The translations under genes were made by a program, and so were the position numbers. The notes below the pieces were generated by a model. The model had not been told where the DNA came from, made no database searches, and saw only the letters and a program-made list of their open reading frames with translations. A stretch of DNA of 64,000 nucleotides from positions 22,466 to 86,465 of the forward strand of contig CALRHC010000001.1 of NCBI GenBank assembly GCA_943359335.1, written 5' to 3'. Shown one piece after another: positions 2,896-58,719 of this stretch. The DNA comes from Candidatus Yanofskybacteria bacterium (GTDB lineage: Bacteria; Patescibacteriota; Minisyncoccia; JACQLN01). Within the stretch, counting starts at the first letter, position 1. Every line of letters starts with the position of its first letter.

Positions 2896-2928
2896 AAAAC
2901 AGCTCCGATCTTGTATCGGAGCTGTTTT
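2896..2928 (+). terminator. intrinsic terminator hairpin (ACAGCTCCGAT-loop-ATCGGAGCTGT + T-run)
   Basis: Perfect 11-bp inverted repeat followed by TTTTGT; near-identical copy at 18309. Confidence 0.7.
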
Positions 2929-5554: not shown

Positions 5555-6871
5555 ATGTTGCAAAATCCGTTTAGTTTAATATTCGATATTTTGGGAGTAG
5601 TCTCACACCATATTTGGTTATGGGGTTGGGTTTTTTTGCCGATTCTTTTGGCACCATTTTTATGGGATGCCTATATGTACCACATTCGTATTAAAACTTT
5701 AAAAAAATTTAAATGGCAGATGTTGGAATTTCGCTTACCGCCAGATGTGGAAAAAAGCCCATTGGCAATGGAACAGGTTTTAGCAATCTTACAAAGCACT
5801 CTTTTTAAAGGTGGTTGGTGGAAACGCTATGTGGAAGGGCGCGTTCAAGAATGGTTTAGTTTAGAAATAACTTCTTTCGAAGGCGAATTACATTTTTATA
5901 TTCGAACACTTGGGCAATTTAGAAATTTAGTTGAGGCGGCAATTTATGCACAATATCCACAAGCCGAAATTTTTGATGCTGAAGATTATACGGCAAACGT
6001 TCCAGCAATAATCCCAAACGAAACCCACGACCTTTTTGGTTGCGAACTTAAATTGGCACGTGAAGATGGTTACCCAATACGCACCTATAAAGATTTCGAA
6101 TTAAAGACCGAAAGTAGCAAAGAAGGTGGTTCTAATATTTCTTTGGTGGATCCTTTGGCGGGCATAGCCGAAACAATGACGCGTTTAAAAAAAGGTGAAC
6201 AAGCTTGGATTCAAATCGCTATAAGACCAACCGATGACGGTTGGAAAAAAGTAGCAATGGAGACGGTTTTAAAATTAGTCGGGCGCCCTAAAAAAGAAGT
6301 GCCACAGGGTTCTTATATGTGGGCGTTACTTAAAAAAGAATTATCCGATTTTGCTAAGGGAGCAGTGCAAGCGCCTTTTAAAACTCCGGAATTTGAACCT
6401 TTTGAATGGGGTTCACCAAAAAGTGATAAGCCTCACTCATTAATGCAGTTTCTTACTTCGGGTGAAAAAGAAATTATAGAGGCAATAGAAAGAAAAACCT
6501 CTAAAGTGGGTTTTGAGACAGTTATTAGAGTTGTGTATATAGGTACTAAAGAAGCTTTTTATATACCAACATTTTTTCAGGTGGCTTCCGGTTTTAACCA
6601 GTTTAGTACACAAAATTTAAATTCTATAAAAAGAGATGGCGCCACATTAACTGCAGGAAAATTTCCTTTTAAAAAATTTAAAGAAATGCAAAAGAAGAAG
6701 TGGATGTTATATAAATATAGAATTCGCGGCCGACCAGATACTATGTTTGTAATGAATACAGAAGAACTGGCAACACTTTACCACTTCCCAGGACGAGTTG
6801 TTATGGCGCCAAGCTTGCCTAGAGTTCAAGCTAAAAAAGGCGAACCACCAGCAGGATTACCCAGTTATTAG
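5555..6871 (+). CDS. hypothetical membrane protein (2 N-terminal TM segments plus large soluble domain), putative partner of the downstream ATPase
   Basis: 438 aa; hydrophobic N-terminus LIFDILGVVSHHIWLWGWVFLPILLAPFLW; no catalytic motif recognised. Confidence 0.5.
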   Translation: MLQNPFSLIFDILGVVSHHIWLWGWVFLPILLAPFLWDAYMYHIRIKTLKKFKWQMLEFRLPPDVEKSPLAMEQVLAILQSTLFKGGWWKRYVEGRVQEWFSLEITSFEGELHFYIRTLGQFRNLVEAAIYAQYPQAEIFDAEDYTANVPAIIPNETHDLFGCELKLAREDGYPIRTYKDFELKTESSKEGGSNISLVDPLAGIAETMTRLKKGEQAWIQIAIRPTDDGWKKVAMETVLKLVGRPKKEVPQGSYMWALLKKELSDFAKGAVQAPFKTPEFEPFEWGSPKSDKPHSLMQFLTSGEKEIIEAIERKTSKVGFETVIRVVYIGTKEAFYIPTFFQVASGFNQFSTQNLNSIKRDGATLTAGKFPFKKFKEMQKKKWMLYKYRIRGRPDTMFVMNTEELATLYHFPGRVVMAPSLPRVQAKKGEPPAGLPSY

Positions 6872-6896
6872 CTTCATTAGCTTTCAGCTTCTTTAG
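6868..6896 (+). repeat. left arm (AGCTTCATTAGC type) of the intergenic palindromic repeat family
   Basis: TTAGCTTCATTAGCTTTCAGCTTCTTTAG; its complementary arm lies at 7258..7289, beyond the four-helix-bundle gene. Confidence 0.6.
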
Positions 6897-6903
6897 ATAT
6901 TAG

Positions 6904-7266
6904 ATGATAAATTCTTACAAAGATTTAATTGTTTGGCAAAAATCATTGAAGTTATCATTGTTGGCTTATGAACTTACCGAAAAATTTCCAAAAGAAGAAA
7001 TCTATGGCTTAACATCGCAAATAAGAAGATCGGCAGTATCAATACCGTCTAATATAGCTGAAGGAAGATATAGAGGGACAAAAAATGATTTTACTCAGTT
7101 TTTAAGAATAGCTTATTCTTCGGGCGCAGAATTAGAGACACAAATAGAAATAGCTAGAAATTTATCAAAGACAAAAGATTTAGATTATTCAAAAATAGAT
7201 ATTTTAATAGTAGAGGTTATGAAGATGTTAAATGTTATGATAAGAAATATAAATCCTAAAAGCTAA
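6904..7266 (+). CDS. four-helix-bundle protein (23S rRNA intervening-sequence protein family)
   Basis: 120 aa, LIVWQKSLKLSLLAYELTEKFPKEE...QIRRSAVSIPSNIAEG..F..IAYSSGAELETQIEIA is the signature of this family. Confidence 0.75.
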   Translation: MINSYKDLIVWQKSLKLSLLAYELTEKFPKEEIYGLTSQIRRSAVSIPSNIAEGRYRGTKNDFTQFLRIAYSSGAELETQIEIARNLSKTKDLDYSKIDILIVEVMKMLNVMIRNINPKS

Positions 7267-7289
7267 AGAAGCTAGTGAAGCTAAAAGCT
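7258..7289 (+). repeat. right arm (GCTAATGAAGCT type) of the palindromic repeat family, ending at the ATG at 7290
   Basis: AGCTAAAGAAGCTAGTGAAGCTAAAAGCT|ATG; same arm precedes ATGs at 15601, 20835, 23430, 33591 and 36412(-). Confidence 0.6.
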
Positions 7290-9005
7290 ATGAATGACGA
7301 AATAACTTTATTTGCCGAAACAAATTTTAGAAACGAGAAGCGTCGTTTTGGTATTAAAAAAGACGATCGCCGCAGGCACACCTATATTATTGGAAAAACC
7401 GGTATGGGTAAAACGACCATGCTCGAAAACATGATTATTTCGGATATTATTCATGGCAAGGGTTTAGGTTTTATAGACCCACACGGGGATTCGGCCGAGA
7501 AAATTTTAGAATTTGTTCCACCAGAACGCATAAACGATGTAATTTATTTCGATCCTTCCGATTTAGAAATGCCTATAGCTTTTAATGCTATAGAAAATGT
7601 TGAAGCCGAAAAAAAGCATTTAGTAGCTTCGGGTTTGATGGGTGTGTTTAAAAAAATCTGGCCCGATGTATGGTCGGCCAGAATGGAATATATTTTAAAC
7701 AATACTATTTTAGCTTTGCTAGATTACCCTGGCGCCACTATTTTGGGTATTATGCGAATGCTTTCTAATAAAGAATACCGCAAGCAAGTGGTGGATGAAA
7801 TTAAGGATCCAATGGTTAAATCTTTCTGGGTAGATGAATTTGCTAAGTATACAGATAGATTTGCGGCCGAAGCCACTCCAGCTATTCAAAACAAAGTTGG
7901 GCAGTTTTTATCGGCTGCGGTTATTCGTAATATTGTAGGCCAAGTAAATAGTGCTATGGATATGCGCAAGGTTATGGACGAAGGCAAGATTTTAATTATG
8001 AACCTTTCCAAGGGCAAAATCGGCGAAGATAATTCTAAACTTTTGGGTGGTTTGCTGGTTACAAAATTACAGTTAGCAGCTATGAGCCGTGTAGATATTC
8101 CCGAAGAAGACCGTAAAGATTTCTTTTTATACGTAGACGAGTTTCAGAATTTTGCGACAGAATCTTTTGGTAATATTCTTTCCGAAGCTCGCAAATATCG
8201 CTTAGCCCTTATTTTGGCTAATCAGTACATTGCTCAATTAGTGCAAAGCGTGGGTGGTTCTAAAAGCACAGCGGTGCGAGACGCAATATTTGGTAACGTT
8301 GGTACCCTAATTTCTTTTAGGGTAGGCGCCGAAGATGCCGAATATTTAGAAAAAGAATTTGCACCAGAATTTGTGGCAACCGATATTGTTAATTTAGCCA
8401 AATACAATGTTTACTTAAAACTTATGATAGACGGCGCAGCTTCGCGGGCTTTTTCGGCCACAACTTTAGCTCCATACCCAAAACCAGCTGTTAATAATCG
8501 CGATGCCATTATTAAACATTCTAGGGAAACTTATGGCACACCTCGCGAAGACGTAGAAAATGAAATAGCCGATTGGGCTGGTGTTAGAGATTTAATGCCA
8601 TCTAGTATAAAAGCAGCAAAAGCAGAAAGTGATGCTGCTTTTCGTGATGGTTACGATACAGAAGCCGCACCAGCGGTTTCTGCTTCCAAGCCAAAAAGCG
8701 ACAAAGATCTTTTTGAAGCTGTTTGTTGGGAGGGTGGGGAAAAAGTTTGGGTGCCATTTAAACCAGATGGAGTCCGCCCAATTTATTGTAAAAACCATTT
8801 ATATAAATTAAACGAAGTTAAACAGCAAGTTATTTTTGAACAGTTTAAACCAGTAAGTTTGAAAGATGCTTTGCAGAAGGGCGGCATAGTTAATCACATA
8901 GGTAATAATCCTCGTCCAAATAAAAAGAAAAATAAACCTAAAGAACCTCCAGCCGATATAGAAGGTTTGCGTTCGCTGCTTTCCGATATCAAGCCAACTA
9001 CTTAA
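7290..9005 (+). CDS. P-loop ATPase of the TraD/VirD4/HerA-FtsK-like superfamily (T4SS DNA-binding-domain type) with C-terminal Cys/His zinc-ribbon-like motif
   Basis: Walker A IIGKTGMGKTT, Walker B LYVDEFQNF; C-terminus CWEGGEKVWVPFKPDGVRPIYCKNH; start set at ATG 7290 (ORF-track GTG 7275 lies inside the repeat arm) by analogy with the other repeat copies. Confidence 0.6.
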   Translation: MNDEITLFAETNFRNEKRRFGIKKDDRRRHTYIIGKTGMGKTTMLENMIISDIIHGKGLGFIDPHGDSAEKILEFVPPERINDVIYFDPSDLEMPIAFNAIENVEAEKKHLVASGLMGVFKKIWPDVWSARMEYILNNTILALLDYPGATILGIMRMLSNKEYRKQVVDEIKDPMVKSFWVDEFAKYTDRFAAEATPAIQNKVGQFLSAAVIRNIVGQVNSAMDMRKVMDEGKILIMNLSKGKIGEDNSKLLGGLLVTKLQLAAMSRVDIPEEDRKDFFLYVDEFQNFATESFGNILSEARKYRLALILANQYIAQLVQSVGGSKSTAVRDAIFGNVGTLISFRVGAEDAEYLEKEFAPEFVATDIVNLAKYNVYLKLMIDGAASRAFSATTLAPYPKPAVNNRDAIIKHSRETYGTPREDVENEIADWAGVRDLMPSSIKAAKAESDAAFRDGYDTEAAPAVSASKPKSDKDLFEAVCWEGGEKVWVPFKPDGVRPIYCKNHLYKLNEVKQQVIFEQFKPVSLKDALQKGGIVNHIGNNPRPNKKKNKPKEPPADIEGLRSLLSDIKPTT

Positions 9006-12409: not shown

Positions 12410-14113
12410 ATGTCAAAAGAAAATATATATATAGAACTCCACGAAGATATTCAATCGGCAGTTGAAAAAATACAATCTTCCGAAGCCGACACAATAGACC
12501 TAGTAATTCCAACAGGCGCTAGAATATTACAAAATATAGTAGATGCCCATTTAATAAAAGATGTTGCCGATGAATGTGACAAAGATTTAACCGTGATTAC
12601 AAGTGATCTTATGGGTAAAATTTTTGCAGAACGTGCTGGGTTAGCCGTTACTGGTTTAAATGGTGCCGAGGAATCGGGTGTAGTAGTTTCTCAGGCAATA
12701 TCATCTACCGGTAGAATTAGCGATATTATTCCAAGAAAAAGAGGAATACCAATAGGAATATCTTCCGAAAAAAAACAACAAGCAGTTTTAACCGCTAGAA
12801 CAAAAACCGTGGCAAGGTCTTCTGGTGGTTCTAGATCTAACGATAAAAAAGCAGAAGATTTTTATTTAAAGAAAAATAAAGGTGAAAATGGTGCGAGTTT
12901 TTTAAAATCATACAGAGAAGAACGTTCCAAAGCGAATGTTTTTGGTAATTTAAGTAAAATAAATCATAAAAAGTTTTTAAGCCCTAGTTCTTTTGTAGGG
13001 CTTATTGTTTTTGTAGCACTAGCAGTTTCTTTTGTTGTATTTAGCCAAGTTTTACCAAAGGCAGATATTTTGGTATATCCAGCACGTGAAGCAAAAAATG
13101 GAAGCATAGAAGTTTTTATTTCTGGGAAAGATTCTAAAACAGATTTAGAAAAAGGTATAATCCCTGGCGAACTTTTAACGAGCGAAAAAATGGAAAGTAT
13201 CGAATCTCCAGCAACAGGTACCCAAAGTTCTTCTGGTAAGGCACGAGGCAAGATAACTATATATAATACTTATTCAACACAGGCTCAAAAATTTGTATCT
13301 TCGAGATTTCAATCGGAAAGTGGAAAAATATTTTGGACAGTATCTAGTGTTAGTGTTCCTGGGTACACCACAAAGAGCGGGAAAATAGTTCCCGGAGAAA
13401 TTACAACCGATGTTGTAGCAGCCGAAGGTGGGGATTCTTATAATATTGCCTCTTCCAAATTTACAATGCCCGCATTTAAAGGTACTGCTAAGGGAGATAA
13501 AATTTATGCTGTATCTAAAGAAGCTATGACAGGTGGCGGAGCCAATGGAGCCAAAATTGTTTCAACTAATGACGCTACAAATGCATACGATAGCTTAAAA
13601 GAAGAAATAAAACCTCAGTTTGATTCTTTTAAACAAAATTTACCACAAGGTTTTAGTTTTTGGCCCGAAGCCTATAACGAAGAATTGGCTTCGAGTTCTG
13701 TTTCTCCGGAAGTTGGTTCGGTTGCCGAAAAATTTACAGCTACTGTAAAAATGGTGGCTAGAACGATTGTATTTAAAAACGACGATCTAGATTTATACAT
13801 AAACAAAAGAATCTCTAAAGATATAGACGAAAATAAAACATTGTTAACTAGTTCTAAAGATGTTTCTTTCTTAAAACAACCACTTGTCGATTACCAAAAA
13901 GGTACGGTTTCTGCGACTCTAAATGTTAAATACGATGTAATGGATGACTTTAATATAGATTCTTTCAAGAAAAGTATATTAAATAAAAAGAAAACAAACA
14001 TCGATATCGCCGATTATAAAGCCGACCGCATAGAAGTTAACCTTTGGCCGTTCTGGGTGAGGTCTATTCCATCTAATCCGGATAGGGTAAATGTGACCAT
14101 TGTAGGGCTTTAA
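12410..14113 (+). CDS. hypothetical membrane-anchored protein (567 aa; cytoplasmic N-domain, one TM, large Ser/Thr-rich extracytoplasmic part)
   Basis: TM at about residue 190 (FVGLIVFVALAVSFVVF); no recognised motif. Confidence 0.45.
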   Translation: MSKENIYIELHEDIQSAVEKIQSSEADTIDLVIPTGARILQNIVDAHLIKDVADECDKDLTVITSDLMGKIFAERAGLAVTGLNGAEESGVVVSQAISSTGRISDIIPRKRGIPIGISSEKKQQAVLTARTKTVARSSGGSRSNDKKAEDFYLKKNKGENGASFLKSYREERSKANVFGNLSKINHKKFLSPSSFVGLIVFVALAVSFVVFSQVLPKADILVYPAREAKNGSIEVFISGKDSKTDLEKGIIPGELLTSEKMESIESPATGTQSSSGKARGKITIYNTYSTQAQKFVSSRFQSESGKIFWTVSSVSVPGYTTKSGKIVPGEITTDVVAAEGGDSYNIASSKFTMPAFKGTAKGDKIYAVSKEAMTGGGANGAKIVSTNDATNAYDSLKEEIKPQFDSFKQNLPQGFSFWPEAYNEELASSSVSPEVGSVAEKFTATVKMVARTIVFKNDDLDLYINKRISKDIDENKTLLTSSKDVSFLKQPLVDYQKGTVSATLNVKYDVMDDFNIDSFKKSILNKKKTNIDIADYKADRIEVNLWPFWVRSIPSNPDRVNVTIVGL

Positions 14114-14143
14114 ATACCCTTGTTTTAAGCCATTATTTTATTG

Positions 14144-14172
14144 TTGACGCCACTGTTTCTATTTGTTATACT
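14144..14172 (+). promoter_or_regulatory. sigma-70-type promoter TTGACG-17-TATACT upstream of infA
   Basis: Good -35/-10 hexamers with 17-nt spacer 18 nt upstream of the infA ATG. Confidence 0.55.
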
Positions 14173-14189
14173 CTTGCAGTTACTAAATA

Positions 14190-14405
14190 ATGAAAAAGGA
14201 TGCTATCCGAAAGGAAGGAGTCGTATTAGAGGCTCTTCCAAGTGCCATGTTTAAGGTTCAATTAGACGATGGTACGGAGGTATTAGCCCATCTTTCAGGA
14301 AAGATGAGGTTGAATTTTATTCGTATTCTCCCTGGAGATAAAGTTGCTATGGAATTCTCTCCATACGACCCAAAAAGAGGTAGAATAGTGTATAGAGGAA
14401 GATAG
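14190..14405 (+). CDS. infA: translation initiation factor IF-1
   Basis: 71 aa S1-like fold, [31 protein letters not shown]...I.PGDKV. Confidence 0.9.
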
Positions 14406-14596: not shown

Positions 14597-14597
14597 T

Positions 14598-14655
14598 CTT
14601 GAAACTCGCAACTTGTAGCTTGTAACTCAAAAAGTTTCAAGCTTCAGGTTACAAG
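14598..14655 (+). promoter_or_regulatory. H-type pseudoknot in the rpmJ-rpsM leader (candidate S4-type autoregulatory element)
   Basis: Helix 1 CTTGAAACT(14598-14606)/AGTTTCAAG(14633-14641); helix 2 CTTGTAAC(14619-14626, inside loop 1)/GTTACAAG(14648-14655); 3' strand overlaps the AAGG just upstream of the rpsM ATG. Confidence 0.45.
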
Positions 14656-14668
14656 GTATAAGATTTAT

Positions 14669-15520: not shown

Positions 15521-15600
15521 ATCATCAGCTTCACTAGCTTCATTAGCTTATTAGGATATCAAACCTAAAAACTAAAGAAGCTAAAAGCTAAAAGCTAAAC
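15521..15600 (+). repeat. intergenic palindromic repeat (AGCTTCACTAGCTTCATTAGC ... GAAGCTAAAAGCTAAAAGCTAAAC|ATG)
   Basis: Member of the six-copy family; fills the whole rpsK-rpsD spacer and ends at the rpsD ATG. Confidence 0.6.
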
Positions 15601-18287: not shown

Positions 18288-18308
18288 GTCTATATACAAA
18301 AAAACAGC

Positions 18309-18345
18309 TCCGATCGATATCGGAGCTGTTTTTTATTACTTATTA
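18309..18345. terminator. bidirectional intrinsic terminator (ACAGCTCCGAT-CGAT-ATCGGAGCTGT flanked by A-run/T-run) between convergent rpsI and the 18343 gene
   Basis: Near-identical to the hairpin at 2896; A-run on the left and T-run on the right. Confidence 0.7.
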
Positions 18346-19659
18346 AAACTCCCCATCAAAAACTTTTACAGTAGAGTTTTCTAAAATATACAACTTAGAT
18401 TCTTTAGGTAAATAAATTACTTTATCAATTTTATTTTCTGGCCAAGAGGCGATATTTACATTGGAACGAGTGTCTATTTCTGCGGTTTTGAATAATTGTT
18501 CTTCGCTAAATAAAACATATTCGTCAAAGTGATGCCAAAACATTTCTCTTCTAATGGTTTCATTGCTTTGGTAAACTAACTCTTGATCGTTGGTTTTTTT
18601 AATTTGCCCGTTGGTTACTTCTTTTAACCAAATAACGCCAATATTTTTTCCGTTGGAATAAACAGCTTTGTCGCCTTCAAGGGAAAATTCTATAAAGTTT
18701 GGGTTTTCGAATTTAGTTTCACCCAAAGCCGAAATATTTTGTATGGCAGAATCCATCATTAAAAGTATGTTTGGGTTTTTAATAGCGATAATTTTGTTTT
18801 CAAATACATCGAAACTTTGAATGTTACTAAAGTTAAGATCGGTAACTTTTTCTTCTTTAACGTCTATTAAAAACAATTTAGCATCTATTAAGGCGATGAT
18901 GCTGTTTTTGCCAAACCATCTTAGTTCTGTTGGTAAAAACTTTGTAGGCAATGGTGTTGGGCTGGGGTTTTTTAATACTAGTTTTTTTTCGTATAGAGTT
19001 GTTAAGTTGGTAAACAAGTTACTAGTAGAATCGTAAAGATACCAGTTTTTAATAGCTCTTGTTGTTTCTCTTAAAACAATCAATTTTTGTGAATTCTTAG
19101 ACCAACCTTTATTGTTTTCTAAAAAGTTTACACTTTTATTTTTTAACTTATCTGGGAATTTTAATTCAGTCGAAGTGGCATTTATATTTGTTAAATCGCG
19201 CATTAAAATTTTTGCTGTATCTATTTTAATAGCAATAAGTTTTTTATCGTTAGAGATTGAAAAATCGTTTAAGCCTTGTGTTTCCGGCCAAACGATTTGG
19301 CTTTGTAATTGCTTAGGAAAGAGTATTACGTTTTCTGTGTTGGTTACTAAACCTGCGGTAACCTGAAATTCTTTTCCCCATGTTTGAAAAGTTTCTTTAG
19401 AAACATTAATAGTATATTTTTTTGAAGGTAAAAGATTTTTTATTAAAGCTGATCCTTTTTTATTGTAAACCTTACTGTTGTAAGTAATTTCTGTTTCTTT
19501 TGGATACGTTGATTTTACATAGATAGCTCCTGAAAGAACGAAGTTGTTATTTGAAAAATCCCAACGGTAACCTCGGGCGTACACAAGCAAGACAGAGCCT
19601 GCAGTTAAAAATATAACTACGGCTATGCCGAGCAAAATTCGTCTAATTCTTATAGTCAT
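18343..19659 (-). CDS. hypothetical membrane-anchored protein (438 aa, single N-terminal TM, probably beta-rich extracytoplasmic domain)
   Basis: N-terminal LLGIAVVIFLTAGSVLLVYA anchor; no catalytic motif. Confidence 0.4.
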   Translation of the reverse strand: MTIRIRRILLGIAVVIFLTAGSVLLVYARGYRWDFSNNNFVLSGAIYVKSTYPKETEITYNSKVYNKKGSALIKNLLPSKKYTINVSKETFQTWGKEFQVTAGLVTNTENVILFPKQLQSQIVWPETQGLNDFSISNDKKLIAIKIDTAKILMRDLTNINATSTELKFPDKLKNKSVNFLENNKGWSKNSQKLIVLRETTRAIKNWYLYDSTSNLFTNLTTLYEKKLVLKNPSPTPLPTKFLPTELRWFGKNSIIALIDAKLFLIDVKEEKVTDLNFSNIQSFDVFENKIIAIKNPNILLMMDSAIQNISALGETKFENPNFIEFSLEGDKAVYSNGKNIGVIWLKEVTNGQIKKTNDQELVYQSNETIRREMFWHHFDEYVLFSEEQLFKTAEIDTRSNVNIASWPENKIDKVIYLPKESKLYILENSTVKVFDGEF

Positions 19660-19753
19660 TTTATCGACTTTAAGTTAGCACACTTTTCTTTATTTGAAAA
19701 ACTCCAAAGTGATGTTAGGATAAAGGCCAGATTAGAGTCTTATTTTTGTAAAC

Positions 19754-20758
19754 ATGTCGGTAAAAATTGGAATTGATTTGGGAACCGCTAATATTTTGGT
19801 GTTTGTCCCGTCAAAAGGGATAGTTATTAACGAGCCTTCAGTGGTAGCGGTTTCTTTAGATGAAAACAAAATTATGGCGGTTGGGCACGAGGCTAAAGAG
19901 ATGATTGGTAGAACACACGAAGGTATTATAGCTGTTCGGCCCGTTAAAGATGGAGTTATTGCGGATTATCGTATAACCGAAGCTATGATTCGGCACTTTA
20001 TTAAAAAAATAACCGGCAGGTTTAGCTTTTTTAGGCCTGAAGTTATGGTGGCAGTTCCGGCTGGTGTAACATCAACCGAAAGACGGGCTGTTATAGAAGC
20101 TACACTTAAAGCAGGGGCTAAGGCAGCATATGTTGTTAAGGAACCAATTCTTGCTGCTTTAGGCGCTGGCATACCTATAAACGAAGCTTCGGGTAATATG
20201 ATAATAGATATAGGCGGAGGCACTACAGAGGTGGCTGTAATATCGTTAGGAGGGATTGTGGCGTGGGCATCGGCTCGTGTTGGGGGTAATGCAATTGATA
20301 CAGCTATTCAAAACTATATTCACAAGGTTCATAATTTAGCTGTAGGCGAGCGTACTGCCGAGCAAATTAAAATTGCAATAGGTTCTGCTGTGCCAAAAAA
20401 AGAAGAAGAAATTTTAGAGATTCGTGGCCGTGACCTCGTGGCTGGTTTGCCTAAAACCATAGAACTCCATTCCAACGAAATTCCTAAAGCCATAAAAGAT
20501 ACTTTGGCTGAAATTATAAAGACAGTAAAAATGGTTTTACAAGAAACTCCACCCGAGCTTTCCGCTGATATAATGGATAAAGGCATGATTATTTCTGGTG
20601 GTACAGCTTTATTGCGAAATTTGGATAGTTTAATAACTCAAGAAACTGGCGTGCCTTGTTATGTTGCCGATGATCCACTTTTCTGTGTGGTTAAAGGCAC
20701 AGGGATAGCTTTAGAAAATTTAGAATTATATAAAAGAGCGTTGTTTGCTAAGAGATAG
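19754..20758 (+). CDS. mreB: rod-shape-determining protein MreB (copy 1)
   Basis: Actin-fold motifs IGIDLGTANILV, VAVPAGVTSTERRAV, IIDIGGGTTEVAVISLGG. Confidence 0.85.
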   Translation: MSVKIGIDLGTANILVFVPSKGIVINEPSVVAVSLDENKIMAVGHEAKEMIGRTHEGIIAVRPVKDGVIADYRITEAMIRHFIKKITGRFSFFRPEVMVAVPAGVTSTERRAVIEATLKAGAKAAYVVKEPILAALGAGIPINEASGNMIIDIGGGTTEVAVISLGGIVAWASARVGGNAIDTAIQNYIHKVHNLAVGERTAEQIKIAIGSAVPKKEEEILEIRGRDLVAGLPKTIELHSNEIPKAIKDTLAEIIKTVKMVLQETPPELSADIMDKGMIISGGTALLRNLDSLITQETGVPCYVADDPLFCVVKGTGIALENLELYKRALFAKR

Positions 20759-20834
20759 CTTCAAAAGCTTGTTAGCTTCTTTAGCTTGGTTAGGAAAATC
20801 TAAAAGCTAATGCAGCTAATGAAGCTAAATTTTA
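20759..20834 (+). repeat. intergenic palindromic repeat (AGCTTGTTAGCTTCTTTAGCTT ... AAGCTAATGCAGCTAATGAAGCTAAATTTTA|ATG)
   Basis: Family member ending at the holB ATG. Confidence 0.6.
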
Positions 20835-22827: not shown

Positions 22828-23358
22828 ATGGAGACACAAGAATTTAAAATTAAACTAAAAGAAGTCGCTACATTTTTGGCGAACGAACTATCAAAAGTGC
22901 GCAGTAACCGTGCTTCACCAGCTTTAGTGGAAGATATATCGGTAGATTATTTTGGCAATAAGACTCCAATAAAGGGTATTGCTAGCATAAGTTCATTAGA
23001 CGCTAGAACCTTGGTTATAGAACCTTGGGATAAAAGTGCCTTGGAACCAATTGCAAAGGCTATTGCCAATGCTAGTATTGGCGCGCAACCTATTGTAGAT
23101 AGCAAAAGCGTTAGATTAAGCTTGCCACAATTAACTCAAGAGCGTAGGCAAGAACTTATAAAATTGGTTTCTCAAAAAATGGAAGAAGCAAAAATAAGAG
23201 CTCGCAGATTGCGTGATGATGCCGTAAAAAGCGCCCAGCAAGAAAAATCCGAAGATATTAAGTTTAGAAAGAAAGACGAAATCGAAAAGGCGATGAAAGA
23301 AAATAATCAGGCTTTGGAAGATTTAAAAAGTAAAAAAGAGAAAGAGTTAATGAACTAG
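22828..23358 (+). CDS. frr: ribosome recycling factor
   Basis: LSKVRSNRASPALVEDISVDYFGNKTPIKGIASIS...LPQLTQERRQELIK. Confidence 0.9.
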   Translation: METQEFKIKLKEVATFLANELSKVRSNRASPALVEDISVDYFGNKTPIKGIASISSLDARTLVIEPWDKSALEPIAKAIANASIGAQPIVDSKSVRLSLPQLTQERRQELIKLVSQKMEEAKIRARRLRDDAVKSAQQEKSEDIKFRKKDEIEKAMKENNQALEDLKSKKEKELMN

Positions 23359-23429
23359 CTTTCAGCTTCATTAGCTTTTAGGAAACTACCTATAAGCTAA
23401 CGAAGCTAACGAAGCTAACGAAGCTAATC
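23359..23429 (+). repeat. intergenic palindromic repeat (AGCTTTCAGCTTCATTAGCTTTT ... (GCTAACGAA)x3 GCTAATC|ATG)
   Basis: Left arm complementary to the right arm; right arm is a 9-bp tandem repeat; ends at the rseP ATG. Confidence 0.65.
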
Positions 23430-30169: not shown

Positions 30170-30250
30170 TGGTGGGGGCAGCGGGATTTGAACCCACGAC
30201 CTACCGATTGGCAATCGGTAGCTCTTCCTACATATCTGAGCTATGCCCCC
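30170..30250 (-). tRNA. tRNA-Gly (anticodon GCC), CCA encoded, unusually long 13-nt D-loop
   Basis: Hand fold: acceptor GGGGGCA/UGCCCCC, anticodon arm ACCGA-UUGCCAA-UCGGU, T-arm GUGGG-UUCAAAU-CCCGC, 3' ACCA. Confidence 0.7.
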
Positions 30251-30260
30251 ACGCAAAATT

Positions 30261-30336
30261 TGGCTGTGCCCCAGGGAGTCGAACCCCGATAGCCTCCTCG
30301 TTTAGAGGTGGTGTCCTGCCATTGAACGAGGGCACA
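30261..30336 (-). tRNA. tRNA of unresolved identity with non-canonical anticodon arm (19 nt in place of 17)
   Basis: Acceptor UGUGCCC/GGGCACA (U1-A72), D-arm GUUC-AAUGGCA-GGAC, T-arm CGGGG-UUCGACU-CCCUG, encoded GCCA; anticodon region CCACCUCUAAACGAGGAGG folds only as an imperfect stem with a 5-, 7- (CUAAACG) or 9-nt loop. Confidence 0.5.
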
Positions 30337-33506: not shown

Positions 33507-33587
33507 ACACAGCTTCGTTAGTTGTTAGCTTCGTTAGCTTTTAGTAAATTTTGAAAGCTAGTGAAGCTAGAAGCTAAAAGCTAAATA
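33507..33587 (+). repeat. intergenic palindromic repeat (CAGCTTCGTTAGTTGTTAGCTTCGTTAGC ... GCTAGTGAAGCTAGAAGCTAAAAGCTAAATATTG|ATG)
   Basis: Family member ending at the recA ATG (33591). Confidence 0.6.
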
Positions 33588-33590
33588 TTG

Positions 33591-36412: not shown

Positions 36413-36497
36413 TAATTAGCTTTTAGCTTTTAGCTTTTAGCTTTTAGCTTTTTAGAAAATTCCTAACAAGCTAATGAAGCTAATGAAGCTAGTTTTA
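36413..36497 (-). repeat. intergenic palindromic repeat (minus-strand reading: TAGCTTCATTAGCTTCATTAGC ... (AGCTAAA)x5 AGCTAA|ATG of ssb)
   Basis: Five 7-bp tandem AGCTTTT units on plus; same family and same placement immediately 5' of a start codon. Confidence 0.65.
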
Positions 36498-50552: not shown

Positions 50553-51537
50553 AAAAGATATTTCAGAACTTCGCCAAGATCCAGTTAGCCGTGATTGGAT
50601 TATAATTTCTTCTGGCAGATCTAAAAAGCCGGATTTTTTTGGGTCGAACAAAAATCTCCACGAAGAAACGCCCATTAATCTTTGTCCTTTCGAAGACCCC
50701 AAAGCTCACGGTAATGAAATTGTAAAAAATTATTCATCGGGTATAAAAGTGGTTAATAATAAATTTCCCATAATAAGGGGCGAGGTTTGTAATTCAGAAA
50801 AAAGATATGGTCCGTATTTAATAAAAGATTCAGCAGGTTATCATGAAGTTGTAATTTTTAAAGATCATAAAAAAGGTATAGCCGAATTAGATAGCGAAAG
50901 CGTTTGGCAAATTGTTTCGGCTTATCACGATAGATATAACAATCTTAAAAATAAAGAATGCGCTAATTATATTTTAATAATTCATAATCATGGACGTGAG
51001 GCTGGGGCTTCGGTTTCTCATCCGCATTCCCAAATATTAGCCATACCTTTTATACCGTCGGATATTAGCCGGAGTTTATCTGGTTCGGCTATATATAAGA
51101 TGGAAAGAAAGCGTTGCGTCCATTGCGATATTATAGAATGGGAACTTAAAGAACAAAAAAGAGTAATATTCGAAAATGATAGTTTTGTAGCGTTGGTGCC
51201 TTATGTACCAAGATTTTCGTACGAAATAAGAATTTTTCCTAAAAAACATCAAGTCTTTTTTGAAGAAGCGGATAATTTAGAATTAAAAGATTTTGCCGAA
51301 GCCTTAAGAGTTTCTTTAGCCAAGATTTTTCATGGCTTAAATAATCCTGCCTATAATTTTTTTATACATACTCCGTCCACCGATGCCGAACATGATTACG
51401 GTTTTTACCATTGGCATTTAGAAATAAACCCAAGATTAGGCGTTTGGGGCGGTTTTGAATTAGGTACGGGCGGTGAAGTTATAAATACTGACCCAGATGA
51501 AGCAGCGGAATACCTTAGGAGGGTGAATTACGAATAA
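50530..51537 (+). CDS. galactose-1-phosphate uridylyltransferase-family (HIT-like) nucleotidyltransferase
   Basis: HIT-type HPHSQ active-site motif (SVSHPHSQILAIPF) and second-half YHWHLEI; overlaps upstream gene by 23 nt. Confidence 0.55.
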   Translation: MENIMQNKKDISELRQDPVSRDWIIISSGRSKKPDFFGSNKNLHEETPINLCPFEDPKAHGNEIVKNYSSGIKVVNNKFPIIRGEVCNSEKRYGPYLIKDSAGYHEVVIFKDHKKGIAELDSESVWQIVSAYHDRYNNLKNKECANYILIIHNHGREAGASVSHPHSQILAIPFIPSDISRSLSGSAIYKMERKRCVHCDIIEWELKEQKRVIFENDSFVALVPYVPRFSYEIRIFPKKHQVFFEEADNLELKDFAEALRVSLAKIFHGLNNPAYNFFIHTPSTDAEHDYGFYHWHLEINPRLGVWGGFELGTGGEVINTDPDEAAEYLRRVNYE

Positions 51538-51602
51538 AGAATTAAGAATTATGATAAGAAAGTTTTTTCTTAATTCATAATTCCTGATTCATAATTCTTT
51601 TT

Positions 51603-53532: not shown

Positions 53533-55248
53533 ATGAAATATAAATGGATTTTTAATGATCAGGCCGAGCCTGATTTTTTATCTAAAGCGCCGGAATATTC
53601 AGAAATAATATCTGCACTGCTTTTGGATAGAGGTTTAGATTCTAAAGAAAAAATAGAAAGTTTTTTTAATCCGGAATATTCTACCGGTTTGCACGATCCT
53701 TTTTTACTTAAAGATATGGATAAAGCTTGCGAGCGTGTCAAACGCGCTATAGCTAACAAGGAAAAAATTGTTATCTATTCCGATTACGATGTAGATGGCG
53801 TTTGTTCGGCTACAGTTTTAGGAGAATATTTTAAAAGCATAGATTATCCAATAGAGGTGTATATGCCCGATCGGCAAAAAGAAGGTCACGGTGTTAATCA
53901 AACTGCTTTAGAATCAATTATAGCTAATGGAGCTAAACTTATAATAACTTTGGATTGCGGTACTACTAACATTAAAGAAATAGAGTGGGCGAAAAATAAT
54001 GGGGTAGATATGATCGTGGTAGATCACCATCAAACCGTGGCAGGAAATCCAGCGACAGTGGCTTTTGTAAATCCCTATCAAGAAGGCGACACATATCCGT
54101 TTAAGGGTTTGTGTGGCACGGGACTCGCTTTTAAATTACACTGCGCTCTTAAGGGTGGAGATAGTTCTTCGCCGAAATGGCTTTTAGATTTAGTGGCTAT
54201 GGCTACTGTAGCCGATATGATGCCACTTTTGGATGAGAATAGGATGTTGGTTAAATATGGTTTATTTGTTTTAGCTAAAACAAAAAGAGTTGGTTTAAGA
54301 AAATTAATGGAATCAGCTGGAGTTGAGGCTAAATATAATTTAGAAACCATTAGCACTAATCTAGATAGCTTTACTTTGGGCTTTACTTTAGGCCCACGCA
54401 TAAATGCGGCAAGCCGTATGGCTCATGCCAATTTAGCTTACGAACTTTTAACCAGTAACGATGAATCTAAAATAGATGAATTAGTTTTATCTCTTAACGA
54501 TAATAATCGTAAACGTCAGCAAGTTGTAGATAAAGTTTTAAAAGATGTTCGTTCCAGAATAGACGCTTATTCAGAATTACCTAGTTTTATAGTGGAGGGT
54601 TCATCTGATTGGTCTATTAATCTTTTGGGTTTAGTAGCTTCAAAAATTACAGAGCGTTATCAAAGGCCAGTGTTGTTGTATCAAAACAAAGATGAGACTA
54701 AGGCCAAAGGCTCGCTTCGTAGTATAGACGGTTTTAATTTAATTGATGCCTTAGGATCGATTAGCAATTTACTTATTCAATATGGTGGGCATACTGCTGC
54801 GGGCGGTTGCACCTTCGAAATTTCTAATGCAGAAAAAGTAAAACTAGGTTTAGATGCTTATGCTAAAAATATTTTAACTCCAGAATTATTACAAAAAAAG
54901 TTAAAAATTAGCGCAGAAATAAATTTGGCTAAAATAGATTGGCCACTAATGGAAACACTCAAAAAATTTGAACCATTTGGCATGGCAAATCCTAAGCCAA
55001 AGTTTTTAAGTAGAGATATCGAAGTTACAAAACTGGTATTACTAGGGCAGAAAGCGGAACATTTAAAAATTTTTATAACCGATAAAAAAATAAATAAAAC
55101 TTTTCCAGTTTTGTTTTTTAGACATAATGGACTTGCCGAAGATTTTAAAATCGGCGACACTTTAGATGTTGTTTACGAGTTAGATATTAACGAATGGAAC
55201 GGGAATAGGGAAATACAATTAAAATTAATAGATTATGCCAAAAAATAA
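53533..55248 (+). CDS. recJ: single-stranded-DNA-specific exonuclease RecJ
   Basis: DHH motifs (YSDYDVDGV, DCGT, VVDHHQ) and DHHA1 YGGHTAAGG. Confidence 0.85.
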   Translation: MKYKWIFNDQAEPDFLSKAPEYSEIISALLLDRGLDSKEKIESFFNPEYSTGLHDPFLLKDMDKACERVKRAIANKEKIVIYSDYDVDGVCSATVLGEYFKSIDYPIEVYMPDRQKEGHGVNQTALESIIANGAKLIITLDCGTTNIKEIEWAKNNGVDMIVVDHHQTVAGNPATVAFVNPYQEGDTYPFKGLCGTGLAFKLHCALKGGDSSSPKWLLDLVAMATVADMMPLLDENRMLVKYGLFVLAKTKRVGLRKLMESAGVEAKYNLETISTNLDSFTLGFTLGPRINAASRMAHANLAYELLTSNDESKIDELVLSLNDNNRKRQQVVDKVLKDVRSRIDAYSELPSFIVEGSSDWSINLLGLVASKITERYQRPVLLYQNKDETKAKGSLRSIDGFNLIDALGSISNLLIQYGGHTAAGGCTFEISNAEKVKLGLDAYAKNILTPELLQKKLKISAEINLAKIDWPLMETLKKFEPFGMANPKPKFLSRDIEVTKLVLLGQKAEHLKIFITDKKINKTFPVLFFRHNGLAEDFKIGDTLDVVYELDINEWNGNREIQLKLIDYAKK

Positions 55249-55684
55249 TAAAGTAGTTGTTTATACAGACGGTGGTTCTAGGGGTAATCCTGGCCCATCG
55301 GCGGTTGGAGTGGTGGTTTACGATGAATCGGAGAAAATAGTAAAAGAATATAATCAGGTTCTAGAAGTTTCTACCAATAATGAAGCTGAATACGAAGCGG
55401 TTATTTTTGCTTTAAAAAAACTAAAACAGCTTTTCGGTAAGGATGGCACTAAAAATTTAGATATAGAATTTAGAATGGATAGCCAGCTTATTGCTTCGCA
55501 ATTAGGTGGTAAATTTAAAATAAACGAAGAAAGAATGCAGGCACTTTTTATTAAGGTTTGGAATTTAAAATTTGAATTTGGAAATATAATCTTTAAATAT
55601 ATTCCACGCGAACAAAACAAACGCGCTGATCAATTAGTAAACGATGCGCTTGACGGCAAAGGAAAAAACGATAAATTACTCTAA
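55235..55684 (+). CDS. rnhA: ribonuclease H (type 1)
   Basis: VVVYTDGGSRGNPGPSAVGVVVYD, NNEAEY, catalytic D/E/D spacing; overlaps recJ by 14 nt. Confidence 0.8.
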   Translation: MPKNNKVVVYTDGGSRGNPGPSAVGVVVYDESEKIVKEYNQVLEVSTNNEAEYEAVIFALKKLKQLFGKDGTKNLDIEFRMDSQLIASQLGGKFKINEERMQALFIKVWNLKFEFGNIIFKYIPREQNKRADQLVNDALDGKGKNDKLL

Positions 55685-55687
55685 AAA

Positions 55688-55727
55688 CAAAACATCCAGC
55701 TCGCCTAGAGAGCTGGATGTTTTTGTT
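55688..55727. terminator. bidirectional terminator AACATCCAGCTC-GCCTAGA-GAGCTGGATGTT with A-run/T-run; 3' end of both rnhA (+) and rnpB (-)
   Basis: 12-bp perfect stem; core CCAGCT...CCTAGA...AGCTGG repeated at 56221. Confidence 0.7.
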
Positions 55728-56170
55728 AAGAAAGTCGTAAGCCGAATTCTGTCTTGCCTCAACGGCAAGGATAATCATCTGTCTGGGATTGTTATTGCTA
55801 ACAACCTCTGGCGACTCTTCCTTAATAATTTAGATTACTAAGGACACGGTCTTGCACCAAGTGGGGTTTACAACTATTTAGTATTGCTACTAAACAGAAT
55901 CGCGTTTGACGCGACACTTTTCACCTTTAGACTCAATTTTTACATTGAGCTTAGTATAGTCTCTGTTGCATAGGCTCACGGAATCAGCTGTCATCAATGA
56001 ACCTATATCCAATAAAGGACACTTTCCCTGGGCTTGAACCTAATTTTCATTAGATCTGCTCCCGGTTGCATTTCGCAACCACTTGTTTCCTCCGTTTATT
56101 CAACGGATTCGGTGTTCGGACTTTCCTCAATCCATTTTTAGATGAATTGCGATTATCTCACTTTCTTAAC
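55725..56170 (-). ncRNA. rnpB: RNase P RNA (bacterial type)
   Basis: Minus strand carries the universal GAGGAAAGUCCGAACACC (P4 5' strand), ACAGAAUUCGGCUUAC (P4 3' strand) and a perfect P1 GUUAAGAAAGU/ACUUUCUUAAC; minus-strand promoter TTGACT-17-TATCAT at 56205..56177; no ORF of substance. Confidence 0.85.
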
Positions 56171-56220
56171 AATATAATGATAATGTTTTTGTTATATTTA
56201 GTCAATATTGAATTTGGCAT

Positions 56221-56257
56221 AACAATACCCAGCTTACCTAGAAAGCTGGGTATTGTT
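56221..56257. repeat. perfect 15-bp palindrome AACAATACCCAGCTT-ACCTAGA-AAGCTGGGTATTGTT between the rnpB promoter and the 56314 gene
   Basis: Same CCAGCT / CCTAGA-loop / AGCTGG core as the rnpB terminator hairpin at 55690. Confidence 0.6.
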
Positions 56258-56313
56258 ATTATCAAGGTGTTACTGATAAACTTAATAGATATTTCTTTTA
56301 TTTTTCTTACTAA

Positions 56314-58719
56314 ATGAGCTCGGATTTTGTTTTTATAGACCCTAATAAAATTCCTCCACGCAGATCGGTTAAACCAGCGAGGTCTGGTCGTTTTAAGGTT
56401 AAGAAAATATCATCTAAGGTTTGGGAAAATAATTATGAAGAAGAGGTAGAATCCCAAGAAGAAGTTCCCGAATTTAATTTACTCGATAGTGTTTTACCGC
56501 AAAATAATATTGCGGTTCAAGCCAGTAGCATTGACCCTTTGAGTCAAGCTATATTTACACCAGAAAAAGTTGTTTTTAGTTCTATAAATAATTATTTACC
56601 TCAAGCAGTTGTAAAAAATAATACAAAAACAAAAGAAGATTTTCGCAAAGAACTTTTAGCGGAAATAGAAAATATCTATGCAAAGGACGATGAACTTTCT
56701 AGAAGAATAAACGAAATGTCTTCTACTTCTCGTTCGGTTCCAATGCATCTAGTCAGCTCTTCTATAATAAATAAAGATATTGATGATAATGGTAATTTAA
56801 AAATTCATATTGCTCCTAAACAAGATTTTTATAAAAACTTTGGAGATAAAGAAAATAAAGATATTTATATTGCAGAGACTTTCATTAAAAAAGATTTGAC
56901 CGAACGTTATAGAGCGGAAAGCGATTGGTTTCAGGTTAGTTCGACAGCGCCTTCTAGGGTTTCTGATTTAAAAAAATACTATGAAGCTAAAGATAGACGT
57001 GGTTCTAATTCTCAACAGGTAAAGTTTGAATTATCTAAAAAAGATAATAGATTTAATTTAAAATCTATCGTTGGGTATATGTCGGTATTTTTAGTCCCTG
57101 TTTCCTTGGTGTATCTTTTTGTTTCCGGTCAGTTTTCTCTTTCTGGTTTTGTTTTAGGTAGTGGAAACTTTGTAAAAACTGCTTTGGGTGGGGTTAATTC
57201 TAAGTTATTAAGCACATCTAGCTTTACCTTGGTTAATTCTAAGGATAGTGAAATTTTTCCACAACTTACAGAATTTAGTTCACAAATTAAAGAGGCTGGT
57301 TTAGGTAAAGAGTTAAGCGATAGTATAGAAAGCTTTTTACAAAAGAATGCAGAATTTTCTTGGTTTAATCTTTTTAAGAGTAAATCTATAAACAATAATT
57401 TTTCTATAATCGAGACAGAAAGTTTAGCCAAAGTTAAAAATGCTTTAAACACTTTAAGTATTAATAATAAAAATTTAATTAGGCTTAGTTCGGAGTTTTC
57501 TAACTATCTTTCCATCATTTCTTTTTGGAATCAGGTTTTGTTGCCAGATAAAAATTATTTAATAGTAGTTTTAAATTCTGAACGTTCTTGGCCGGGTGGG
57601 GGTGAACCAAAAAATTATGTTGTTGTTAGTACCTCTAAAGAAGGTTTAGAAACAGTGTCATCTGGTAAATTTTCCGAACTAGATGCTGCATTCGATTTAA
57701 AAGTAGTTCCGCCCGATCCAATTAAAGTAGCTAGCACTTCCTGGTTACCATCGCAATCTTTTTGGTTTATGGATTTTAAAGAATCCGCCAAAACAATTAC
57801 AAACTTTTTTGAAAATACTTCTGGAAAAAGAATCGACGGCGTAATTGCGGTAAATGAAAGCTTTTTAAAAAATTTAAGTTTTAAAGAAAGTTTAACAATG
57901 GATACTTCTTCACCTAGTTGGTTTTATGGTTTTTACGAAGCTTTTGGTCGCAAGCCGGCTGGCAGATGGGTATCTTTAGCAAGTATTTTAAATAATGGTT
58001 TAAATTCTCACGATGTTCAGTTTTATTTTAAAGATTCTGCGTTAGAAAAATTTGTTGAAGGCTCTGGTTGGTCAACTAAAGTTGCTAGTGAAGACTCAAA
58101 AGATATTTTAGGTGTTTCTTGGGCTAGTATAAAGGGCGGATCTTTAAATTTGGAACTGGCTGAATATAGAACACAAATATTTCAAGATGGTTCGGTTATA
58201 GTAAAACTTAATTTAATGGTTCGTCAAAATATTGGAGATGAATCGTTAAGTTATTTAAAAGTATATTTGCCAAAAGGTGCTCAAGTTTTGAAAGCAGAAG
58301 GTTTTTCGGTTAAAGAAAAAATTCCAAAATTTAGTTATGCAGTTAAGGGTTTTTCTTCGGATAGAAGAATAAATAATTTTACAGATTCTAAGGCGGGCGA
58401 TATAGATATTTTTGATGAAGGCAATAACGCTGTTGTGGGTGGTTGGATTAACTTAAAAAGAAACGCAAGAAACACGGTTAATTTGGAATATATTTCTTCT
58501 ACAAAAATTTCGCGGGTAGATGGAAAAGGAGATTATTCTTTGAAAATTATTCGGCCAAGTCAAAAAGATAATGTCCCTTTTCGTTATGTGATTACTCCAC
58601 AAGAAGGTGTAATTATTGAATCTTTAGAACCAAATGGTTTTGTAAGCCAGAACCTGGGTGAATATCAGGGCAATATTTCGCAGGATCTAAATTTAATTTC
58701 ATCGTTTTTGTTTAAATAA
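56314..58719 (+). CDS. large hypothetical membrane-anchored protein (801 aa; TM near residue 250, Ser/Asn-rich extracytoplasmic region)
   Basis: Single internal TM YMSVFLVPVSLVYLFVSGQF; no recognised motif. Confidence 0.4.
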   Translation: MSSDFVFIDPNKIPPRRSVKPARSGRFKVKKISSKVWENNYEEEVESQEEVPEFNLLDSVLPQNNIAVQASSIDPLSQAIFTPEKVVFSSINNYLPQAVVKNNTKTKEDFRKELLAEIENIYAKDDELSRRINEMSSTSRSVPMHLVSSSIINKDIDDNGNLKIHIAPKQDFYKNFGDKENKDIYIAETFIKKDLTERYRAESDWFQVSSTAPSRVSDLKKYYEAKDRRGSNSQQVKFELSKKDNRFNLKSIVGYMSVFLVPVSLVYLFVSGQFSLSGFVLGSGNFVKTALGGVNSKLLSTSSFTLVNSKDSEIFPQLTEFSSQIKEAGLGKELSDSIESFLQKNAEFSWFNLFKSKSINNNFSIIETESLAKVKNALNTLSINNKNLIRLSSEFSNYLSIISFWNQVLLPDKNYLIVVLNSERSWPGGGEPKNYVVVSTSKEGLETVSSGKFSELDAAFDLKVVPPDPIKVASTSWLPSQSFWFMDFKESAKTITNFFENTSGKRIDGVIAVNESFLKNLSFKESLTMDTSSPSWFYGFYEAFGRKPAGRWVSLASILNNGLNSHDVQFYFKDSALEKFVEGSGWSTKVASEDSKDILGVSWASIKGGSLNLELAEYRTQIFQDGSVIVKLNLMVRQNIGDESLSYLKVYLPKGAQVLKAEGFSVKEKIPKFSYAVKGFSSDRRINNFTDSKAGDIDIFDEGNNAVVGGWINLKRNARNTVNLEYISSTKISRVDGKGDYSLKIIRPSQKDNVPFRYVITPQEGVIIESLEPNGFVSQNLGEYQGNISQDLNLISSFLFK

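Follow-up and report, generated by a model that had tools for sequence, protein, structure and literature searches.

Six spacers in a 64-kb window of Candidatus Yanofskybacteria DNA (64,000 nucleotides of contig CALRHC010000001.1; 'the window' means this whole stretch) hold members of one palindrome family, each made of two complementary arms of short tandem units and placed between two genes. In one member, a gene for an intervening sequence protein of 23S rRNA (IVP) lies between the arms, and the family shows turnover at orthologous spacers of related genomes. The six loci are moderately likely to represent a single mobile palindromic cassette family that resembles both the intervening sequences (IVSs) of rRNA genes and miniature inverted-repeat transposable elements (MITEs), being selfish but tolerated in operon spacers, with a step of RNase III processing proposed by analogy. 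The palindromes are probably not a translation-start signal.

Two-armed palindromes fill six operon spacers

The motif AGCTTCRTTAGC (≤1 mismatch) has 19 matches in the window versus 0.65 ± 0.89 expected (0/100 shuffles reach 19), and 17 of these lie within six loci, where the core heptamers TTAGCTT and AAGCTAA also cluster. These counts, with the predicted hairpin folds, bear out an earlier note on this DNA, which had assigned a composite two-arm element to the same loci from the letters alone; its description of an intergenic palindrome family with tandem sub-repeats, like MITEs or repetitive extragenic palindromic (REP) sequences, also stands. Left arms consist of two to four units of the (T/C)AGCTTCNTT type and right arms of two to five complementary units, either AANGAAGCT or the heptamer AAGCTAA. 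Unit number varies, as the earlier note had anticipated, from 2–5 in the window copies up to 9–10 in L072 and L130 (L numbers denote sequences used for comparison). The array at 15578–15598, previously read as (AAGCTAAA)x3, is in fact (AAGCTAA)x3 with 7-nt spacing.

The five short copies are predicted to form imperfect hairpins of 23–31 bp (z = -2.4 to -6.8 compared with dinucleotide shuffles), with folded loops of 6–13 nt; stem length is 17–40 bp over all 17 copies folded. As read from the sequence, the short stretch between the two arms starts with TTAGGA or TTAG and ends with CTAA. The copy between the S11 and S4 genes is identical in the independent assemblies L206 (the source contig, ERZ27280297 k141_152035, from Hainich groundwater), L207, L208 and L209, so the element is no assembly artefact. 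The window copies, one of which bears an open reading frame (ORF), are as follows:

6868..6896 (+), left arm of the ORF-bearing cassette (TTAGCTTCATTAGCTTTCAGCTTCTTTAG); TAG at 6869–6871 terminates the 438-aa gene upstream
6904..7266 (+), 120-aa loop ORF, 23S_rRNA_IVP/four-helix-bundle (Avd-like) protein; last codons and stop lie within the right arm
7258..7289 (+), right arm of the ORF-bearing cassette (CTAAAAGCTAAAGAAGCTAGTGAAGCTAAAAGCT); abuts ATG 7290 of a TrwB/VirD4-like ATPase gene
15521..15600 (+), ORF-less copy in the S11|S4 spacer (arms 15526–15597); z = -5.0
20756..20834 (+), ORF-less copy in the MreB|DNA polymerase III delta' spacer; z = -2.4; the arm opens with the TAG stop codon
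23356..23429 (+), ORF-less copy in the RRF|M50 protease (RseP-like) spacer; right arm (GCTAACGAA)x3; z = -6.8
33507..33590 (+), ORF-less copy in the HTH_25|RecA spacer; z = -4.3
36413..36497 (-), ORF-less copy in the S6|SSB spacer; right arm (AAGCTAA)x5; z = -3.3

Each of the six copies occupies the whole spacer between two co-oriented genes and none lies inside a gene, with ~91% of the window coding. Gaps are 0–6 nt from the stop codon to the left arm and 0–7 nt from the right arm to the start codon, and in three copies (6868, 20756 and 23356) the first triplet of the arm is the TAG stop of the upstream gene. Flanking gene pairs identified by Pfam are S11|S4, MreB|DNA_pol3_delta2, RRF|Peptidase_M50, HTH_25|RecA, S6|SSB and unknown|TrwB-like ATPase, in agreement with the downstream genes named previously (rpsD, holB, rseP, recA, ssb and the ATPase gene at 7290). 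Location 5′ of a start codon, which the earlier note had taken as typical, applies to all six window loci but is not obligatory, as L086 has two copies flanked by convergent genes.

An IVP gene between the arms of the 6868–7289 copy

The locus at 6868–7289 is split into two arms because the gene at 6904–7266 lies between them, a link to the IVP family overlooked in the earlier note. The encoded protein matches PF05635 (E = 3.5e-36) and TIGR02436 (E = 7.9e-35), its nearest solved structure is a pentamer of the S23p family from Xanthomonas (PDB 2gsc; E = 7.7e-23), and it is a homologue of Avd, scoring 20.5 bits with the Avd equivalog model (cut-off 80). The arms around this ORF pair together in both the minimum free energy (MFE) and the centroid fold, and the ORF terminates within the right arm (..AATCCTAAAAGCTAA). 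Homologues at 70–94% identity number in the thousands, in Parcubacteria, Wolfebacteria, Moranbacteria and others, and comparison with the L121 ortholog (dN/dS 0.13, dS 0.58) indicates that the IVP gene is under purifying selection and is not decaying. This arrangement has a counterpart in the IVS of Coxiella burnetii (428–444 nt), where 28-bp terminal inverted repeats enclose an S23p ORF in the loop together with variable tandem heptamers; this IVS is excised by RNase III and its S23p is apparently unexpressed (PMC4990558). IVP ORFs have also been reported inside rRNA insertions of the candidate phyla radiation (CPR; PMC11270868).

The five short palindromes look, from their sequences, like ORF-less derivatives of the IVP cassette. 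In full cassettes the innermost left arm reads ..TTAGGAAAG(N5-8)ATG, with AGGA as ribosome-binding site for the IVP gene, as in L124 and L127, and the last bases of the IVP ORF, ..(T)CCTAA, form the beginning of the right arm (window, L121, L122, L126, L131 and L133). Solo copies keep a TTAGGA...CCTAA inner stem around their 6–13 nt loop, which matches what would remain after an internal ORF deletion of the MITE kind. Complete solo palindromes flank the IVP gene in L130, L133 and L195, showing that both arrangements exist.

Three of the first four contexts examined (7290–9005, L121 and L124/L125) place the IVP cassette within clusters resembling type IV secretion (T4SS) or conjugation systems, with neighbours including the TrwB/VirD4-like ATPase, PrgI, TraC-like and TraG-like genes.

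Arm-IVP-arm units in other genomes

In other Patescibacteria the layout recurs in unrelated gene settings, and AGCT-type arms bracket the IVP gene in every context examined: the orthologous locus in L121, L122 (DUF4325|IVP|Fpg) and L124, in which two cassettes, one intact and one decayed, surround the PrgI gene in a T4SS-like operon. Further AGCT-type arm-IVP-arm units are found in L126, L127, L129, L130, L131, L133, L136 and L139. As such arms occur in several other Patescibacteria, Parcubacteria and Saccharibacteria assemblies, the family is not lineage-specific, contrary to the earlier note. A contig scan with the bare 14-mer AGCTTCATTAGCTT lacked specificity, giving at least 120 stretches, mostly chance matches; among these, only those in L044, L056, L072, L077, L086 and L119 were informative. 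In viral contigs, the 24-nt right-arm repeat matched only coding EANEAN... repeats, present in six large contigs, and no palindrome was among the matches.

A metagenome scan yielded 80 further IVP loci (47–75% identity), 68 of them with both flanks. Local alignment of the 80 nt upstream with the region just downstream of IVP identified a flanking inverted repeat in 54/68 loci (p ≤ 0.01 compared with shuffles), and in 48/68 tandem units recur, mostly with a period of 7, 8 or 14 nt. Inverted-repeat scores are 14.5–15 for IVP loci versus a median of 7.5 (maximum 12.5) for ordinary window genes. Duplex-fold energies on 120-nt flanks were rejected in favour of this test, as they were inflated by long spurious extensions.

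AGCT-type arms are found only around IVPs at least 62% identical to that of the window (nearest group, 62–75%). More distant IVPs are flanked by different arm units (e.g. GTGGTTAGT, TAGGGTT, GGATTCAAG, GTAGTTC, GACTAGY and GGCACAAAG), with the downstream arm again complementing the upstream one, so that complementarity is kept between lineages while the units change completely. Across lineages, TAG is over-represented in upstream arms (213 vs 92 ± 9) and CTA in downstream arms (200 vs 83 ± 9), and stop codons are present in all three frames in 52/71 upstream arms, compared with 30 ± 4 in shuffles.

Rfam detected no rRNA in any of 60 IVP loci scanned, which makes the name '23S rRNA intervening sequence protein' a misnomer for this subfamily. 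In the literature searched, neither IVP cassettes nor these palindromes were found to be described from intercistronic spacers. A published table for Flavobacterium columnare (Table 5 in PMC5524665) places a gene annotated 'four helix bundle protein' between gmk and nadD, separated from either neighbour by ~35 nt, which suggests that the intercistronic habit may reach beyond Patescibacteria, into Bacteroidota.

Turnover at orthologous spacers

Comparison of orthologous spacers, proposed as a check in the earlier note, revealed presence/absence variation. An 80-nt element occupies the S11|S4 spacer of the window and of L207 (~98.5% identical). The spacer is only 30 nt in L210, which has an identical S11 protein and ~96% nt identity, and 12 nt in L211 (S4 93% identical), both without the element, while L212 has a different palindrome family here and L213 other repeats. 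At RRF|RseP, the window has the AGCT element where L211 has an unrelated hairpin. The MreB|holB spacer has orthologous but diverged AGCT elements in the window and L211 and is a 31-nt spacer without an element in L213. In L211, copies ~90% identical to the S11|S4 element of the window are found at IF1|L36 and L36|S13. Presence or absence at orthologous spacers, together with ~90% identical copies at non-orthologous ones, indicates that the elements are mobile; such behaviour, with orthologous spacers carrying the element, none or another palindrome, is that of a mobile element and does not fit a conserved regulatory role. In L072 (UBA2135) almost all gene junctions of the S10/spc ribosomal operon contain the element, with right arms of 3 to at least 9 units.

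Two more palindrome families with the same architecture are present in the window:

14597..14660 (+), second family (CTTGAAACT / ACTTGTAGC units) in the L36|S13 spacer; z = -2.8
51524..51600 (+), third family (GAATTAAGA / TCATAATTC tandem units) in the GalT|TIM spacer; z = -3.1

The second, reading GTCTTGAAACTCGCAACTTGTAGCTTGTAACTC...GTTTCAAGCTTCAGGTTACAAGG, also fills the S11|S4 spacer of L212, and arms like it (ACTTGTAGC/GTTACAAG) flank IVP genes in L142 and L183. The left arm of the third overlaps the stop codon of the upstream gene. Further unrelated hairpin families are seen in operon spacers of relatives (L211 20416–20557, L213 7241–7360 and the S13|S11 spacer of L211 and L212), examples being GCAGACGACACGGAG...CTCCGTGATGCTGC and GTAGTCCTCCTTCGC...GCGAAGCGAGGAGCGAAGG. 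The S11|S4 spacer of L213 contains two direct copies of a ~57-nt unit, and in L211 a 1046-nt insertion (18839–19884) separates a BNR-repeat gene from frr, where the window has a 66-nt spacer. N-runs, representing assembly gaps or masking, in L072 (5840–6126) and L211 (8912–9012) coincide with two nearby element copies; since they sit exactly at repeated copies, the elements appear to break or collapse metagenome assemblies, explaining gaps in CPR assemblies.

A proposed mechanism and its alternatives

In the cassette proposed here, two terminal inverted-repeat arms would form an imperfect stem of ~25–35 bp around a loop that is either near-empty or occupied by the IVP gene. Copy 6868–7289 would be the ORF-bearing form, the five others retaining the inner stem that in full cassettes bears the IVP ribosome-binding site and stop region. 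Sitting in short spacers of co-transcribed genes, cassettes would be transcribed along with the operon and may persist there because they are near-harmless: the TAG-rich outer arm would give the upstream gene a stop codon, as for GTAG REPs (PMC3733652), surplus unpaired A-rich units of the right arm would leave the next start codon free, and most genes of this organism would initiate without a Shine-Dalgarno sequence in any case. Residual flanks add up to 0–13 nt, a length that native operon spacers also span (e.g. 5, 6, 18 and 27 nt), so the flush placement needs no targeting. It is plausible, by analogy with rRNA IVSs and Correia elements, that RNase III cuts the transcribed stem, separating the cistrons and releasing IVP mRNA. 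Copies might spread through recombination at shared arms, or by means of a hairpin-specific Y1 transposase, like the REP-associated tyrosine transposases (RAYTs), acting in trans.

Several observations weigh against this scheme. Among the ~60 ORFs scanned in the window there is no rnc (RNase III) gene and no transposase, nor is a transposase associated with the elements. The 17 copies fold equally well on both strands (sense better for 7, antisense for 10; G-U pairs 29 vs 44), giving no sign of mRNA-specific selection on pairing, so complementarity could be kept at the DNA level; the variable seventh base of the 9-mer unit is usually mismatched and not compensated. Comparison of filled and empty S11|S4 sites shows a replaced spacer, with no clean junction or target-site duplication seen. 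Solo copies could also be ancestral, with the IVP gene inserted into their loop. For IVP flanks, the sense versus antisense comparison, which looks for a G-U against A-C asymmetry as a mark of RNA-level selection, is only marginal (43 vs 24, p = 0.06). The contrast between G/T-rich left and C/A-rich right arms was dropped as an indicator of strand asymmetry, since it is symmetric under reverse complement.

The lack of folding bias would suit purely DNA-level transposons of REP or MITE type, moved in trans by a Y1 (RAYT-like) transposase that recognises TAG-containing units, with IVP a passenger and the RNA hairpin incidental. Enrichment of TAG and CTA in the arms recalls the GTAG head cleaved by RAYTs, REP termini are known to donate TAG stop codons (PMC3733652), and the close relative L211 encodes a Y1_Tnp protein (PF01797; 263 aa; 13542–14333, inserted after rpsI along with a 191-aa unknown gene) weakly matching the RAYT model (39 bits, E = 5.5e-10, cut-off 80). 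However, this gene lacks flanking AGCT palindromes and is missing from the window, where no Y1 gene occurs among the ORFs scanned. The elements here are 60–100 bp with multi-unit arms and no fixed GTAG/CGTC head, not REPs of 20–40 bp, and both the dN/dS of 0.13 and the covariation of IVP with arm type argue against random cargo, making this alternative unlikely. The same covariation could be taken to mean that the tandem units are binding sites for pentameric IVP, forming a (ribo)nucleoprotein complex by which the cassette would be protected, processed or copied. Avd, the homologue of IVP, is a nucleic-acid- and reverse transcriptase-binding accessory protein of diversity-generating retroelements, and strong conservation of IVP (thousands of homologues, low dN/dS) is in keeping with such a role, but the correlation is accounted for just as well by co-descent of gene and arms, S23p of Coxiella appears to be unexpressed (PMC4990558) and no reverse transcriptase is near among the window ORFs scanned; we think there is little chance that binding of this kind accounts for the arms. 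Somewhat less doubtful, though still speculative, is a broader proposal: that IVP plus tandem TAG-unit arms constitute a self-contained, hitherto unrecognised class of mobile cassette in which IVP, as an Avd-like pentamer, recognises its own arms and drives or protects cassette copying, rRNA IVSs being a minority of a larger population found mainly in intercistronic spacers of Patescibacteria and other phyla.

Stop and start codons flank the stem base at all six loci, as would be expected of cis-regulatory hairpins that replace the Shine-Dalgarno sequence and control initiation or coupling, either by juxtaposing stop and start at the stem base or by occluding the leader. Right arms also tend to have more units than left arms in sense orientation (10 vs 2, with 6 ties; hand tally), a modest hint that the resulting unpaired A-rich leader before AUG is favoured. 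The earlier note was correct that the six downstream genes lack a Shine-Dalgarno sequence, but this is the norm of the genome rather than a special property, because even by lenient criteria only 14/61 window genes have one, and the 47/61 (77%) without it include genes that have no element. The hairpin was also said to sequester the start region, but MFE folds leave AUG and the preceding 6–12 nt unpaired. As orthologous genes in close relatives have no element or an unrelated palindrome, and copies also lie between convergent genes (L086) and around a selfish-looking ORF, such regulation is improbable, if a little less so than IVP binding. Stable hairpins between genes could also act as intrinsic terminators or attenuators that partition operons, but there is no U-tract, scans of 15521–15600, 20756–20834 and 23356–23429 gave no terminator-like or promoter-like hit, contrary to the role in termination proposed earlier, and in L072 nearly all genes of an essential ribosomal-protein operon are separated by the element; this explanation is very improbable. 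Sigma-70 promoters and intrinsic terminators inside the elements were likewise rejected, with no consensus hits in the three copies scanned. The genuine terminators of the window (2896–2928 and 18299–18334) are, in contrast, short GC-richer stems followed by a T-run.

Gene setting and other features of the window

The window has low GC content (~36%) and high coding density, with housekeeping genes of a Patescibacteria-type genome, and its nearest database relatives are labelled Parcubacteria, Patescibacteria or Minisyncoccia. Rfam identified only RNase P RNA and tRNA, with no rRNA. RNase P RNA (bacterial class A, 145 bits) lies at 55723–56168 (-), and the overlapping listed ORF at 56066–56317 is probably spurious. 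ARAGORN predicts a tRNA-Phe with an unusual anticodon (AAA) at 30261–30336 (-), adjoining a tRNA-Gly(GCC), while Rfam at its gathering threshold gives only a tRNA at 30173–30250. A strong AAGGAGG is present at a few genes (29579, 34739, 37125, 49402 and 58769), and stop codon usage is TAA 42, TAG 16 and TGA 3. The hairpins at 2896–2928 and 18299–18334 are near-identical and perfect (AAAACAGCTCCGAT-loop-ATCGGAGCTGTTTT), lie between A-runs and T-runs, and look like bidirectional intrinsic terminators, one sequence serving the ends of two operons.

Comparison with known systems

Correia elements (NEMIS) of Neisseria are 100–155 bp, with terminal inverted repeats and TA target duplication, and are co-transcribed with genes into hairpins cut by RNase III. 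The palindromes described here resemble these and similar MITEs in being short, non-autonomous and near genes, with long hairpins in mRNA and strain polymorphism. Their inverted termini are TAGCT...AGCTA and comparison of filled and empty S11|S4 sites shows spacer replacement without clean duplication. Unlike MITEs, the ORF-bearing relative encodes a four-helix-bundle IVP and no known transposase, and the arms are internally tandem-repetitive. In phage T7 early mRNA, intercistronic RNase III sites are unique, conserved processing signals. These are also imperfect hairpins between cistrons of one transcript, separating them if cut, but they involve no repeated mobile family and no ORF.

REPs and bacterial interspersed mosaic elements (BIMEs), with their RAYTs (PMC3733652), share many-copy extragenic palindromes, donation of TAG stops and a TAG motif, and L211 has a sub-threshold RAYT-like gene. 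The elements here differ in length (60–100 bp vs 20–40 bp) and in having N-TAGCTT units, with T, C or G before TAG in place of a fixed GTAG/CGTC head, and no REPtron-like arrangement was seen. Two further candidates were rejected. TIGR-Tas arrays consist of two alternating 8–12 nt repeats with variable 9-nt spacers, in 5–15 units, adjacent to a Nop-domain Tas gene (PMC12045711), while here units are contiguous without variable spacers and form one palindrome per spacer between housekeeping genes. A diversity-generating retroelement, in which an Avd gene adjoins a reverse transcriptase and a TR/VR repeat pair, would not fit, with no reverse transcriptase among the window ORFs scanned (the RVT_3 hit at 55235–55684 is an RNase H fold) and the low score with the Avd model.

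[quoted passage not shown] The origin, mobility and function of rRNA IVSs and of S23p/IVP have been open questions since the early 1990s (PMC4990558). Cassettes with and without the gene, several arm 'dialects' per genome and turnover between ~96% identical strains provide a large comparative population of elements for three of them: what IVP does, whether the stems act as RNase III punctuation of operons and how palindromes without a transposase spread. No new mechanism is demonstrated, but the old IVS/S23p puzzle becomes a large comparative data set.

The rRNA IVSs of Leptospira, Coxiella burnetii and Brucella (PMC4990558) share with the cassette an ORF-bearing copy of ~420 nt, a terminal stem of ~25–30 bp with a PF05635 ORF in its loop, tandem 7–9 nt repeats of variable number beside the ORF, ORF-less short forms and a sporadic distribution among relatives. 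They lie in helix 25 or 45 of 23S rRNA (also in 16S rRNA in CPR), whereas the cassettes lie between protein genes of operons and have arms that are arrays of TAG-containing units supplying stop codons. Excision by RNase III without re-ligation is a feature of the rRNA IVSs and may, by analogy, extend to the intercistronic cassettes.

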